The position numbers and the translations under genes are program-made. DNA of 64,000 nt, from NCBI GenBank assembly GCA_035356615.1, contig DAOQSN010000030.1, positions 167 through 64,166 of the forward strand, written 5' to 3'. The notes below the pieces were generated by a model. That model had not been told where the DNA came from. It saw nothing but the letters and a program-made list of their open reading frames with translations, and ran no database searches. Below, piece by piece: positions 15,594 to 56,247 of this stretch. The stretch's first letter is position 1, and each line of letters starts with the position of its first letter. Origin of the DNA: Phycisphaerae bacterium (GTDB lineage Bacteria; Planctomycetota; Phycisphaerae; UBA1845).

Positions 15594-15668
15594 CAGCGCA
15601 GCTCCCTTTCCGCACGCCACTGCTCACCTATGATGACAGATGTTCGCGGCGATCCCCGCCCTGAGCAA

Positions 15669-15752
15669 CCCCCCTCCCTCCCAGGGAGGGGTCCGGGAGG
15701 GTTGAACCACCGCGGCATTCCCCTCACCCTGCCCTCTCCACATACGGGCGGG
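15669..15752. repeat. Head-to-head doublet of the CCCTCACCC palindromic element (reverse copy + 18-nt spacer + forward copy), intergenic
   Basis: Spacer ttgaaccaccgcggcatt is 13/18 identical to the spacer tcaagccaacgcggcact of the doublet inside mnmE. Confidence 0.8.
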
Positions 15753-44304: not shown

Positions 44305-46929
44305 CTACGGGGCGGCCGGGAGTTGCGCGCGCAGGTCGTCGGCGTATGCCCGGCATGGCGGGGACGTGCTGATGGCGTCGGCGCCGAGTTCGAGCATTTG
44401 GCGTGCGATATCCACCTGCCCGCCGGCGAGCAGCAGACGGGCGGCCAGGCAGTACGTCCAGGGCAATTCAGGGCGCTGCTCCTGGGTGAAACCCAGGGCG
44501 AACAGCAATTGCCGGCGTGCTTCGGCGCCAGCGGGGCCGGTCGCGCACACGGCCTCGACGTGGGCAACGGCGTCGTCGTGGCGTCGTCCGCGCAGCGCCA
44601 CGAGGGCGAGCGTGCCGTGGGCGAGCGGCGCGGCAACGACCTCACTCAGCAGGGCGTTGGCGGCCTGGACGGCGGGGGCAGGCAGCCCGGCCAAGGCCTG
44701 GGACCAAGCCAGGTACGCGCGGGCCTCTACGCAGCCGGGGAAACGCGTCAACACGTCCGCCCACAACGCCACGCAGGGCTCGAATCGGCCATTCTCGAGG
44801 AAAGCAGCGTGATAGATGAGCGCCCGGTTGAGGGCGGCCGTCACGGCTTGCGGATCGCGCCGGAGCGCTTCTTCGTAGACGGCAAGGGCGTCGGCGGTGC
44901 GACCCAGGGTCTGATAGGCCACGCCGAGGTTGACGCGAGCGGCCGAGTGTTCCGGCATCCAGTCAAGCAGGCGTTCGAGGCGATCAGCGGCTGCTTGCGC
45001 TGCTGCGGTCGTACCGAGCCCCAGGTCCAACTCCGCGAGACCGAGGCTGGCGGGCACCTCGTAGGGGTTGCTTTGCAGTGCCTGTTCGTAGACGGCGCGG
45101 GCGTCGGCGAGGCGACCGACGCGGCGGTACAGGTCGGCAAGGCGAATGAGCACGGGGTTGTTGGTGGGCGCGAGCGTGACGGCGGTTTCGTACAGAGGCA
45201 GGGCCTCGGCGATCCGCCCGGCTTCCTCAAAAAAGTGGGCCAGGCGGTAGTACGCCAGCGGGTTGCGCGGGTCCGTGTCGAGCGCCTGGGTAAGAGCCGC
45301 CTCGGCCTCGGCCAGGCGACCGCGGCGCCATTCCGCCAGGCCGACGAGTTGATAGACCTTGCCCTCGAGAATGACGTCGGCGCGAGGCAGCTCCCGCCGG
45401 GCCAAGTCGATCGCCTGGACGTAGTACTGCTCCGCGCCCGCGGCATCGCCGGCGGTCTCGGCCGCCTTGCCCGCGTTGTAGTACGCCCAAGCCATGCGCT
45501 CGTATACCTGCGGCAGGTCGGGGTTGAGCTGCGCGATGCGCGTGGTCTTCAGAATGGCGCTGTCGTAGAACGAGCCGACGTGCCAGCTTGTGAGCAGAGC
45601 CGCAACGAGCAGGGCGAGACCGGCCACGCGCGGCACGAAGCGGCGTGCGGTCGAAGCGGCATGCTCGAACCAGCGTGCGTGGGCAGCGCGGAGCATGACG
45701 GCCGAGGCCCATAACAGACCGATAATCGGCAAGTACATGTAGCGATCGGCGGCCAGGATGTTCCGCGCGGGGACGATGGGCAGCGTCGCGGCGATGGCCG
45801 CGCAGAACCAGAGCACGCCCAAACGGACCCCGAGCCACCTCCAAGCCGCCCAGGTCAACCCGATGGCCGCGGGAACGAGCACCAGCAGCGTCGGCGTCGT
45901 GAGCAGGTCCGCCCAGTACACCACCGGCGGGGCGTGGTACCAGGCGGCCAAGCCGCGGGGCCAGACGAAGTGCTGCACGTACCACGCCAGGGAAAGCAGC
46001 ACGCGGACGACGCGAGGCCCGTGGAGGTGCTCGGCTCCGCCGGCAAACATCTCCGCCTCGGCCGTGGACCAGATGTTGACGACGGCGAAGGCACCCGTCA
46101 CCGCGGCATACACCGCCCACGCCAGCCAGAGACGGCGGGTGGACCTCGGCATGCCCGGTAGAGACCCTCTCCCCCCTGGGGGAGAGGGCAGCGTGAGGGG
46201 GGATGCCACTGCGGTCCCGCCCTCCGTCGGACGCTTCCCGGCAGGAAGGCCGAGCAGGTCGCGAATTCTCAGCCCGCGTGCCAGGGGCACCATCAGCAGG
46301 AGCACCGGCAACTCGACGCGGACTTTGCTGGCACCGCATGCTAGGACGAACAGCAGCGTCAGCCCCGCCCAGCGCCAACCGCCATGTTCCAGGAACCGAG
46401 CCCACGTCAACAGCGCTGCGACCGCGAACAGCGTCGACATGAGCATCATGCGGCCGTTGATCCAGGCGACTACTTCGACCTGCAAGGGGTGCAGAGCGAA
46501 GAGCAAACCGCCGATCAGGGCAACACGCTCATCTCGACTGAGGCAACGCAACAGGCGCCAGACCAGGACGGCGTTGGCAGCATGGAGCAGGATGTTGGTC
46601 AGGTGAAACAGCCACGCTCCGGATTGCGGGTCGCGGGGGTCGAAGAGGTCCAGGCGGTAGGCCAGCCAGAACTCGCCGGAGAAGCTCAGCAGCGGCAGCG
46701 GCTGGTACAGGTCGCGGTGAACGATCTTGAACAGCGCCAGGGCGTGCGACCAGGACGGGTGGTTGACCAGCACGTGGTTGAGGGCGAGTTGGTAGTCGTC
46801 CCCGCCGACGAAGCCGCCGCCGATGGTGGGCAACCCCATCGCCAGAGCGGCCAGGCCCACGACCAGGCCCGCAGGGCGCAGAAAGCGCGGAGGAGTGCAG
46901 GCGTTACGTTTTGGCGTTACACCGGTCAT
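44305..46929 (-). CDS. TMTC-like membrane protein (GT-C-type protein O-mannosyltransferase family N-terminus) with C-terminal TPR repeats
   Basis: GGDDYQ, YQPLPLLSF, FHLTNILLHAAN, FALHPLQVEVVAWINGR, AADRYMYLP, followed by multiple TPRs. Confidence 0.85.
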   Translation of the reverse strand: MTGVTPKRNACTPPRFLRPAGLVVGLAALAMGLPTIGGGFVGGDDYQLALNHVLVNHPSWSHALALFKIVHRDLYQPLPLLSFSGEFWLAYRLDLFDPRDPQSGAWLFHLTNILLHAANAVLVWRLLRCLSRDERVALIGGLLFALHPLQVEVVAWINGRMMLMSTLFAVAALLTWARFLEHGGWRWAGLTLLFVLACGASKVRVELPVLLLMVPLARGLRIRDLLGLPAGKRPTEGGTAVASPLTLPSPPGGRGSLPGMPRSTRRLWLAWAVYAAVTGAFAVVNIWSTAEAEMFAGGAEHLHGPRVVRVLLSLAWYVQHFVWPRGLAAWYHAPPVVYWADLLTTPTLLVLVPAAIGLTWAAWRWLGVRLGVLWFCAAIAATLPIVPARNILAADRYMYLPIIGLLWASAVMLRAAHARWFEHAASTARRFVPRVAGLALLVAALLTSWHVGSFYDSAILKTTRIAQLNPDLPQVYERMAWAYYNAGKAAETAGDAAGAEQYYVQAIDLARRELPRADVILEGKVYQLVGLAEWRRGRLAEAEAALTQALDTDPRNPLAYYRLAHFFEEAGRIAEALPLYETAVTLAPTNNPVLIRLADLYRRVGRLADARAVYEQALQSNPYEVPASLGLAELDLGLGTTAAAQAAADRLERLLDWMPEHSAARVNLGVAYQTLGRTADALAVYEEALRRDPQAVTAALNRALIYHAAFLENGRFEPCVALWADVLTRFPGCVEARAYLAWSQALAGLPAPAVQAANALLSEVVAAPLAHGTLALVALRGRRHDDAVAHVEAVCATGPAGAEARRQLLFALGFTQEQRPELPWTYCLAARLLLAGGQVDIARQMLELGADAISTSPPCRAYADDLRAQLPAAP
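46165..46202 (-). repeat. CCCTCACCC palindromic element, in frame inside the TMTC-like gene
   Basis: Minus strand ccccctcacgctgccctctcccccaggggggagaggg encodes PLTLPSPPGGRG; 10-11 bp stem. Confidence 0.88.
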
Positions 46930-54390: not shown

Positions 54391-54690
54391 GACGACGCCT
54401 GGTTCGCTGAGTGCAGTTGTTGTCGGGGCGCATGCACGCTCGTCATCAGTTCCCCAGGTCCAAAGGACCTGGGCCACCCCATCGTCCCCGGGTCCGAAGG
54501 AGTAGGGCCGCGGCGCGGGGCCGCGTGCTCCCTGGCGCAGATCGGATAGTATCGTAGGCAGCCGGAGAAGTCTCCGGCCGCCTTCGTGCGTCGGCTGGGG
54601 TGAGCGCGGAGGGCGTGGTGTTTCTGCCCAGTGGCTGTGGCGCGGGGTTTCCGCCCCGCGAACGCGGTGCGACGGGGCCGACGGTGTCGC

Positions 54691-56247
54691 ATGCTGGATC
54701 GGCTGGATGAGACCATTGTGGCGGTTTCGTCCGCGCCGGGGCGCGGGGCGCTGGGGATCGTCCGCGTAAGTGGGTCGCAGGCGCTGAGCATCGCGGACCG
54801 AGTCGCCAAAGTGGGGACGCCGCTGGCGTCGCAACGGGGGTGGACCCGCGTGGCGGGCGAAGTGAGGGTATCGGACGAGGTGAGCACCCCTGACGCCACC
54901 CCGCTCCCTTTCAGGGAGGAGTTGGGAGAGGGTCAAGCCAACGCGGCACTCCCCCTCACCCTGCCCTTTCCCCCAAGGGGGAGAGGGGTTTCGTCAGACG
55001 CCCCAAGGGGCAGAGAGGTTCCGTCAGGCGCCCTAAGCGTGCCGGCGTGGTTCTACGTGTTTCGCCGACCACACAGTTACACACGTGACGACCTGGTGGA
55101 GGTGCACACGCTCGGCTCGCCGGTGGTGCTGGAGATGGTCCGGCAACGCCTGCTGACGGCCGGGGCGGTGGCGGCCGAGCCCGGCGAGTTCACCGCGCGG
55201 GCGTTCCTCGCGGGCGGGATGGACCTGACGCAGGCGGAGGCGGTCGCCGGCATCATTCGCGCGCAAACGGATACCCAGTTACGGGCGGCCCGGCGCCTGA
55301 TGGACGGTGCGCTAGCGGCGCCGATCGTGGCCGCCAGTGAGCAGCTTACCGAGTTGACCGCGCTGGTGGAGGCCCAGATCGACTTCTCCGAGGAGCCGAT
55401 CGAGTTCATCACGCCGATCCAACTGCGGACGCGGCTGACGGAACTGGCGGGGCAATTGCGTCGGTTGCGCACGGAGGGGCTGTCCGCCGAACGGTTGCAG
55501 GAACTGCCGCACGTGCTGCTGCTGGGATCACCGAACGTCGGCAAGAGCACGCTGCTCAACGCGCTAAGCGGCACGCCACGGGCGATCTGTGCGGCCGCCG
55601 CGGGCACGACGCGCGACATTCTGTCGGTGCCGGTGCGTCTGGGGGCGGGGGAGGCGATGTTGCTGGACGCGGCCGGCCTGGACCAGACGGTCGATGAGGT
55701 GCTCGCGCAGGCCCGCGTGCTGACGCTGGCGGCCGCGGCGCGCGTGGACCTGATCTGCCTGGTAGCCGACGCCGGCGCGCCGGGGGGTGCCCTGGGCGAC
55801 GTGGTGGAGCACGTGCGTGCCCTGGAGTCTCCGCGCGTGGTCATCGCCGCGAACAAGTGTGATCTGCTCGGTCCGGCCGAGCAGGCACGGCGGGTGCGGG
55901 AGTTGGCCGAGCTTCGCCTGGGGGCGGTGTGTCCCGTGAGCGCGTTGACGCAGGCGGGCCTGGTGGCGCTACGCGAGGAGCTTGCGGGGGTCTTGTACGG
56001 TCCGCGCGGGGCCGGGCTAACCGTGGAACGGGAGGCGCTGGTGCTGAGCGGACGGCATCGGGAGGCGCTGGACGAGGCGGTGGACGCTCTCGTTCGGGCC
56101 ATCGAGCTGAGCCGGGCGACCGACGCCGCGGAGCTGGTGGCGTTCGAGCTGCGTACCGCGCTGAACGCCCTGGGTCAGATCACCGGCGCCGTGGCCACGG
56201 AAGACCTGCTGAGCCTGGTGTTCTCGCGCTTCTGCATCGGAAAGTGA
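54691..56247 (+). CDS. mnmE: tRNA modification GTPase MnmE with a ~50-aa repeat-derived insertion
   Basis: TIVAVSSAPGRGALGIVRVSG, PHSYTRDDLVEVH, GEFTARAF..G.MDLTQAEAV, GSPNVGKS, GTTRD, NKCD, C-terminal FSRFCIGK. Confidence 0.95.
   Translation: MLDRLDETIVAVSSAPGRGALGIVRVSGSQALSIADRVAKVGTPLASQRGWTRVAGEVRVSDEVSTPDATPLPFREELGEGQANAALPLTLPFPPRGRGVSSDAPRGREVPSGALSVPAWFYVFRRPHSYTRDDLVEVHTLGSPVVLEMVRQRLLTAGAVAAEPGEFTARAFLAGGMDLTQAEAVAGIIRAQTDTQLRAARRLMDGALAAPIVAASEQLTELTALVEAQIDFSEEPIEFITPIQLRTRLTELAGQLRRLRTEGLSAERLQELPHVLLLGSPNVGKSTLLNALSGTPRAICAAAAGTTRDILSVPVRLGAGEAMLLDAAGLDQTVDEVLAQARVLTLAAAARVDLICLVADAGAPGGALGDVVEHVRALESPRVVIAANKCDLLGPAEQARRVRELAELRLGAVCPVSALTQAGLVALREELAGVLYGPRGAGLTVEREALVLSGRHREALDEAVDALVRAIELSRATDAAELVAFELRTALNALGQITGAVATEDLLSLVFSRFCIGK
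54887..55033. repeat. Composite palindromic insert (doublet of the CCCTCACCC element + short tandem tail), in frame inside mnmE
   Basis: Reverse copy 54901-54932, 18-nt spacer, forward copy 54951-54988. Bounded by cctgacg / cgtcagg inverted repeats. Confidence 0.88.

Follow-up and report, generated by a model that had tools for sequence, protein, structure and literature searches.

An in-frame palindromic element in mnmE of a Phycisphaerae-like bacterium, probably translated as a tolerated loop

Results

A composite palindromic element lies within mnmE

We analysed the gene for the tRNA modification GTPase MnmE in a 64,000-nt stretch of a Phycisphaerae-like genome (the window; contig DAOQSN010000030.1, positions 167 to 64,166), in which a composite palindromic element occupies part of the N-terminal coding sequence. 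Unprefixed coordinates are window positions, and the prefix C30: marks genome contig coordinates. The gene and the parts of the insert are arranged as follows.

54691..56247, + strand: mnmE, tRNA modification GTPase, 518 aa including the insert (P0001), identified by Pfam, PDB, fold and orthologue alignments
54884..55033, + strand: composite palindromic element of the insert; its 11-nt terminal inverted repeats, GCACCCCTGAC and GTCAGGCGCCC, bound 150 nt
54896..54933, + strand: left hairpin unit, composed of CTCCCT-TTC-AGGGAG and, after it, a second G-rich arm GGGAGAGGG
54934..54950, + strand: conserved central spacer CAAGCCAACGCGGCACT, with the core CGCCGCGGCATT kept across copies in the family alignment
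54951..54990, + strand: right hairpin unit, CCCCCTCACCCTGCCCTTTCCCCC-AAG-GGGGGAGAGGGGTT, the most abundant unit of the family (149 right-half-only loci)
54971-55000 and 55001-55030, + strand: 30-nt tandem duplication, copies 87% identical

The open frame extends from 54631 to 56247 (+), and the ATG at 54691 (MLDRLDETIV) is the start that agrees with orthologues. P0001 matches the Pfam families TrmE_N (PF10396), MnmE_helical (PF12631) and MMR_HSR1 (PF01926) and displays the three-domain architecture of MnmE/TrmE, with TrmE_N, a helical domain and, set into the latter, a G domain. We take TrmE_N to be the tetrahydrofolate-binding and dimerisation domain of MnmE. The TrmE_N match is split in two by the insert, its second part covering residues 121-175 from profile position 62 of 117. 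PDB sequence matches of P0001 were 3gee, 9hip and 1xzp, and the alignment to 3gee and 9hip is broken at the insert. An earlier reading of the window from its letters (the sequence-only reading) had described the G-motifs and the terminal FSRFCIGK as intact, and this was borne out: the G1-G4 motifs GSPNVGKS, TTRD, DAAG and NKCD and the C-terminal FCIGK are all present in P0001, in invariant alignment columns.

The boundaries of the insert were set by alignment to the family consensus. The element is flanked by TGA (54881-54883) and TAA (55034-55036), and the extra sequence amounts to 153 nt, or 51 codons. The sequence-only reading had proposed a repeat-derived insertion of about 50 aa, formed by a head-to-head palindrome doublet. 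The insertion is indeed in frame, with an exact length of 51 codons; the peptide between ...EVRVSDEVS and VPAWFYVF was found in both sequence and translation, and the doublet consists of the left unit, spacer and right unit listed above. CCTGACG (54889-54895) and CGTCAGG (55022-55028), correctly described as bounding the insert, are the element's own terminal inverted repeats and not a target duplication. Derivation from the repeat was also upheld, as the mnmE copy ranks 7th of the 293 family loci (nhmmer E = 5.7e-28) and shares 86% identity with the consensus across 114 nt. What the earlier reading did not mention is the tandem duplication: the 150 nt of the mnmE copy are a 120-nt element plus 30 duplicated nt, which take in the right hairpin's 3' arm together with the terminal repeat on the right, adding ten codons in frame (PRGRGVSSDA / PRGREVPSGA). 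A 22-nt core pattern has three matches in the window and none in 100 shuffles, and the resemblance to the repeat family greatly exceeds what chance would give.

The inserted segment is absent from MnmE orthologues

Forty related genomes, none of the same genus but all within the family or order, were searched, and the 20 best orthologous open reading frames were aligned. Genome after genome, the MnmE match splits into approximately residues 1-65 and 115-518. The segment is missing in 20 of the 20 orthologues, which represent 20 related genera, and the loop in them is exactly 51 residues shorter, for example GAVFI-DDVAA-LPA in one orthologue versus GEVRV-SDEVS-[51 aa]-VPA here. Among 5.8 billion proteins searched, the window's own gene call (P0002) came closest, and the next homologues, with 55% BLASTP identity (approximately 61% aligned), are typically 468 aa long versus 518 aa. 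The segment was also absent from alignments of 22 and of 119 of the closest database homologues, the 119 again having a loop shorter by exactly 51 residues, and a scan of genome contigs found only distant MnmE and other GTPases. Hence no orthologue compared shares a homologous segment, in agreement with the sequence-only reading. The family match and the 86% consensus identity rule out an old lineage-specific loop unrelated to the repeat.

A second case was found in another lineage. In P0071, from a JGI metagenome (L087:1319-1385), the G domain of mnmE contains an in-frame insert of approximately 65 residues, whose DNA includes a related palindromic unit, CCCTCTCCCT-C-AGGGAGAGGG-TCGGGGTGAGGG, between its own 13-nt inverted repeats. 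Such elements may have reached MnmE by separate events in at least two lineages, each time in another loop. The G-domain position of the P0071 insert is also occupied by inserts in P0077 and P0064.

The insert is predicted to form a disordered loop at a hairpin tip

An AlphaFold2 model of P0001 was built with 120 aligned sequences (mean predicted local distance difference test score (pLDDT) 82.4, predicted template modelling score 0.70). Its fold matches the MnmE structures 3gei, 3gee, 3geh, 1xzq and 9hip, determined by crystallography and cryo-electron microscopy, with E from 1.6e-29 to approximately 1e-24. In the model, the insert lies between strands 52-61 and 115-124, where the block-mean pLDDT is 86-97; the insert's own block means are 34-48, with residues 75-109 below 50. 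The prediction supports the view that the insert is a disordered surface loop at the tip of a confident beta-hairpin in TrmE_N. The earlier proposal that a whole composite element had entered a beta-hairpin loop and been retained is supported by this low-confidence loop between the two strands and by approximately 140 orthologues without the segment.

The same hairpin tip has an unrelated 17-residue insert (QVQDAGPGMAEVGQS...) in the orthologue L005 (G010:C302), and therefore the tip tolerates length changes in MnmE. Elsewhere in the N-terminal domain, P0106 contains a tandem SPPTRGGAT repeat in a different loop, where P0024 and P0117 also have approximately 16 extra residues, and other MnmE homologues of this class have lineage-specific inserts of their own in other loops.

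Separate assemblies contain the insert

The genome is a 76-contig metagenome bin (5.03 Mb, 67% GC, 93% complete), and the 40-nt core of the right unit is highly repeated in the samples, with a summed word depth of approximately 1000 at 54951-54977. Both facts speak for an assembly artefact, in which a repeat copy was wrongly spliced into mnmE. Against this, three activated-sludge metagenome runs (2016) hold the stretch, each in one contig from an independent per-run assembly. These contigs (1769, 1769 and 13969 nt) span the 801-nt stretch 54600-55400 with 0 differences and 0 gaps; contig depth over the insert equals the flank depth of approximately 14, and no joint skipping the insert was seen in the three runs. 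The three runs may be the bin's own source, so that the comparison excludes an assembler-specific error and leaves room for population heterogeneity. In addition, some substitutions and the 30-nt duplication are private to this copy, whose two flanks are neighbouring stretches of a single gene, in frame with each other. An artefact is thus barely credible.

The element belongs to a dispersed family of two unlike hairpin units

The family was defined by iterated nhmmer with a longer seed, after a search with the 40-nt core CCCCCTCACCCTGCCCTTTCCCCC-AAG-GGGGGAGAGGGGTT, which has approximately 160 matches in the genome. It comprises 293 distinct loci, divided into 57 full-length copies, 149 right halves only, 23 left halves only and 64 other partial copies; a looser cut-off (at least 100 model positions) gave 74 near-full-length copies. 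The element begins with an 11-nt end, GAGyCCCTGAC, followed by the left hairpin CCCCTCCCT-yyC-AGGGAGGGG and a further G-rich arm. A conserved spacer of 17-18 nt (..TCGA..CGCCGCGGCATT) forms the middle, and the last part is the right unit, composed of a C-rich arm and the hairpin CCCTCTCCCCC-N3-GGGGGAGAGGG, with the inverted end GTCAGGCGCTC. The left and right units have a common layout in inverted orientation and unlike sequences. The modal distance between the element ends is 120 nt, a multiple of 3.

In its size below 300 bp, non-coding nature, multiple copies and 11-nt terminal inverted repeats (GAGyCCCTGAC / GTCAGGCGCTC), the element agrees with MITEs (transposable elements of the miniature inverted-repeat type). 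It also agrees with the repetitive extragenic palindrome (REP) type in its GC-rich, mostly extragenic palindromes, which form inverted doublets (57 full) with conserved spacing. Several related genera contain half-units, and a few have full doublets.

Two further copies lie in the window.

15666..15744, + strand: free intergenic partial copy (nhmmer C30:15832-15910, E = 2.7e-13)
46146..46272, - strand: second near-full-length copy (nhmmer C30:46312-46438, E = 1.1e-14)

The identity of 13/18 between the spacer of the mnmE copy and that of the free copy, given by the sequence-only reading, was recovered when counted by eye with the next base included.

Other copies are in frame in unrelated genes

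The 293 loci were screened for open frames, the requirement on both sides being 50 codons or more and a GC content at third codon positions (GC3) typical of coding sequence. This yielded 23 candidate in-frame intragenic copies or units, approximately 8% of the loci. The usual coding fraction of a bacterial genome is far above 8%. Such a share fits the expectation that disruptive insertions are purged and in-frame copies survive in permissive loops. When host open reading frames were scanned against Pfam, five of six had domain matches.

In a Ser/Thr kinase (G000 C10:62878-63000, -), the catalytic loop HRDIKSSNILLD is separated from VKIADFG by approximately 110 extra residues, among them a complete copy of the composite element and a (V/A)GAS(V/A)DAV repeat of low complexity, and the Pkinase match is split in two. 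In MiaB (L079; G000 C27:12216-13853, -), which has UPF0004, Radical_SAM and TRAM domains, a 50-residue in-frame insert within the TRAM region includes one family unit (DPSPPWGRGQGEGE) at C27:12457-12512. Seven orthologues, with 64-74% identity across the catalytic core (residues 20-436), lack this insert. Further in-frame hosts are a PMT_2 and TPR protein and a Wzy_C O-antigen ligase. The window copy at 46146-46272 (-) is itself in frame within a long membrane and TPR protein, according to the GC3 test and to Pfam TPR matches downstream, and shares the mnmE reading frame (...SPLTLPSPPGGRG...). Across the genome, the number of frames or orientations in which units are read is at least four (PLTLPSPPRGRG, PSPCPLPQRGRG, PSPPWGRGQGEG and TPLPLGGEGRVRG), and therefore the family has no conserved peptide.

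This variety of frames bears on whether the insert has been exapted, with the Pro/Gly/Arg loop or the mRNA hairpin serving, for example, MnmE dimerisation, MnmG binding or translation pausing. Several observations favour such a function. The RNA of the inserted stretch folds as one long hairpin (-79.6 kcal/mol, z = -2.6), the site is within the dimerisation domain, L005 has its unrelated insert at the same tip, and other lineages have inserts in other MnmE loops. However, the family is read in those several frames in unrelated proteins, the insert is predicted to be disordered and is confined to this genome among the homologues compared, and the mnmE copy differs from intergenic copies solely by the duplication. 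Exaptation is thus very unlikely. A broader hypothesis, that REP-dimer elements of Phycisphaerae are a recurrent source of disordered Pro/Gly/Arg loops in essential enzymes and that the mnmE N-domain insert was co-opted (for dimerisation, MnmG docking, or co-translational folding via the mRNA hairpin of approximately -80 kcal/mol), we consider improbable.

Discussion

The insert is very probably a translated passenger of mnmE

Taken together, our data make it very probable that a selfish palindromic element was copied into mnmE and is translated as a tolerated 51-residue loop. In this sequence of events, a non-autonomous, MITE-like or REP-dimer-like hetero-dimer would have been copied into the coding sequence, landing at the beta-hairpin tip of the N-terminal TrmE_N domain. 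mnmE stays open because the insertion adds a whole number of codons, with no stop in the frame used, and the element would be translated as a Pro/Gly/Arg-rich disordered loop of 51 residues. Later slippage may have duplicated 30 nt, again in frame. Since insertions that break essential genes are lost, intragenic copies form an in-frame minority in permissive loops. Most likely, the mnmE insert is carried as a tolerated passenger and is no adaptation.

Several observations weigh against this interpretation. The public gene call P0002 (402 aa, first residues VPAWFYVF) begins at GTG 55040, right after the insert. No same-genus relative or empty-site allele was present in the collections searched, where MnmE matches in the related genomes are at most 58% identical and the best homologue is 55-61% identical, so that neither the age of the insertion nor selection acting on it is measurable. 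No RNA run holding the stretch was found. As for how the element moves, the genome has six matches to Y1_Tnp (PF01797), and none of the six genes is directly flanked by family units within the 3 kb examined, the nearest being partial units approximately 0.7-1 kb away. No parent autonomous element was detected as an inverted pair of the terminal 20 nt 250-4000 nt apart, in a bin of 93% completeness from which insertion sequences may have been lost. After copy ends had been re-anchored by local alignment, identical 3-nt flanks were seen in 3 of 31 cleanly anchored copies (permutation mean 0.84, P approximately 0.05), and those of the mnmE copy are TGA and TAA; this support for target-site duplication is too slight for a claim.

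The gene call raises the alternative that mnmE is disrupted, being translated from GTG 55040 as a 402-aa protein that lacks the first half of the N-terminal domain, or being a young pseudogene with a lucky open frame. Public gene callers produced exactly this product. In addition, on either strand the right-hand unit can be read through in two of its three frames, and 3 divides the modal length; a frame left open by chance is therefore not rare, at an estimated 1 in 5 or so. On the other hand, the 65 residues upstream of the insert are 46-63% identical to orthologues, about as conserved as the remainder, and their codons have a high GC3 of 0.81. Predicted strand 52-61 pairs with 115-124, and its loss would break the sheet of the domain. 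Despite 14% divergence from the consensus and the in-frame 30-nt duplication, the copy contains no frameshift or stop. No second mnmE copy was found in the genome, and the partner gene mnmG is intact (PF01134, E = 4.6e-158). These findings make disruption unlikely, although a truncated product is the strongest of the rival readings, and full-length, insert-bearing MnmE is presumably made and active. The P0002 call omits the conserved first 65 residues of mnmE, and its start is probably an annotation error due to the atypical composition of the repeat.

A tolerated element in mnmE is a well-bounded case of a selfish palindrome surviving in an essential, universally conserved enzyme as a predicted disordered loop, a phenomenon hardly documented in this phylum. 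It also points to an annotation hazard, since mnmE was called as 402 aa and not 518, and approximately 20 other in-frame copies are probably mis-called in a similar way. For protein engineers, the insertion sites (the MnmE N-domain hairpin, the MiaB TRAM domain and the kinase HRD-DFG linker) offer a natural map of permissive loops.

Relation to known palindromic repeats

The closest parallel in action is the Rickettsia palindromic elements (RPEs; Ogata et al. 2000/2002). As summarised in a 2024 MITE review, these are dispersed palindromes of approximately 100-150 bp, many of them in frame in unrelated housekeeping genes, whose translated segments were judged compatible with the fold of the host protein (PMC10969869). 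The review considers similar MITE-mediated protein evolution possible outside Rickettsia (PMC10969869). Like RPEs, the present element is an in-frame palindromic repeat in unrelated genes (mnmE, MiaB, Ser/Thr kinase, PMT_2/TPR and Wzy_C). In contrast, RPEs use one frame, with a conserved peptide per family, whereas the present element uses at least four frames; nearly half of the copies are intragenic in some RPE families, versus approximately 8% of loci here. RPEs are found in Alphaproteobacteria, while the element occurs in a GC-rich, free-living genome of approximately 5 Mb of Planctomycetota/Phycisphaerae-like affiliation, and no kinship in sequence is expected. The element works like an RPE and is not a member of the RPE families, from which frame use and taxon set it apart.

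Intragenic REPs and REP dimers encoding 20-82 residues were described in several species, including Opitutus terrae, a bacterium of the Planctomycetes-Verrucomicrobia-Chlamydiae group, and R. conorii, with the same survivorship argument (Di Nocera et al. 2013; PMC3733652). As in the GTAG/CGTC-tagged REPs of that work, the units here are short GC-rich stem-loops, mostly extragenic with a minority in known genes, and form head-to-head hetero-dimers with conserved spacers that could fold into larger hairpins (PMC3733652). The consensus tag differs, in a comparison by description only: the consensus here is ..GGGGTTCTGTCAGG.., with TGTC by the stem, while some copies, including that in mnmE, have CGTCAG. 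The TGTC/CGTC tag of the present element stands 2-3 nt from the stem. The stems are also without the A-T first pairs described for CGTC families (PMC3733652). Furthermore, no REP-flanked REP-associated tyrosine transposase (RAYT) was found among the six Y1_Tnp genes here.

REP doublets forming hairpins (REPINs) and bacterial interspersed mosaic elements (BIMEs), known from Pseudomonas and E. coli, are mobilised by RAYTs of the Y1 type, and their replicating unit is an inverted doublet of REP-like hairpins. The present family resembles them in its inverted hairpin doublets, hundreds of copies and conserved spacing, and differs in having two unlike halves, its own 11-nt terminal inverted repeats and no flanked Y1_Tnp gene. 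A REPIN-RAYT reading is not supported, as no Y1_Tnp gene is flanked by family units. With bacterial MITEs (ERIC, BOX, Correia and Nezha-type) the element shares small size, terminal inverted repeats, many copies, non-coding nature and occasional in-frame intragenic copies (PMC10969869, PMC3184786). It differs from them in that the search here found no parent insertion sequence whose ends match, and identical flanks were limited to the 3 of 31 copies noted above. The mnmE insert is thus a new example of a known phenomenon, represented by RPEs and intragenic REP dimers; no new mechanism is revealed, and the biology agrees with both.

A second family is nested in the right hairpin

An unrelated MITE-like family of approximately 138 nt, with 177 BLAST hits in the genome, is nested within the right hairpin of the first element. 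Nested copies were located at G000 C37:51664-51811, C22:6021-6166, C18:30355-30490 and C43 near 18963. AAGGGGGAGAG stands on both sides of the nested copy, which suggests that this family inserted into the hairpin with a long target duplication.

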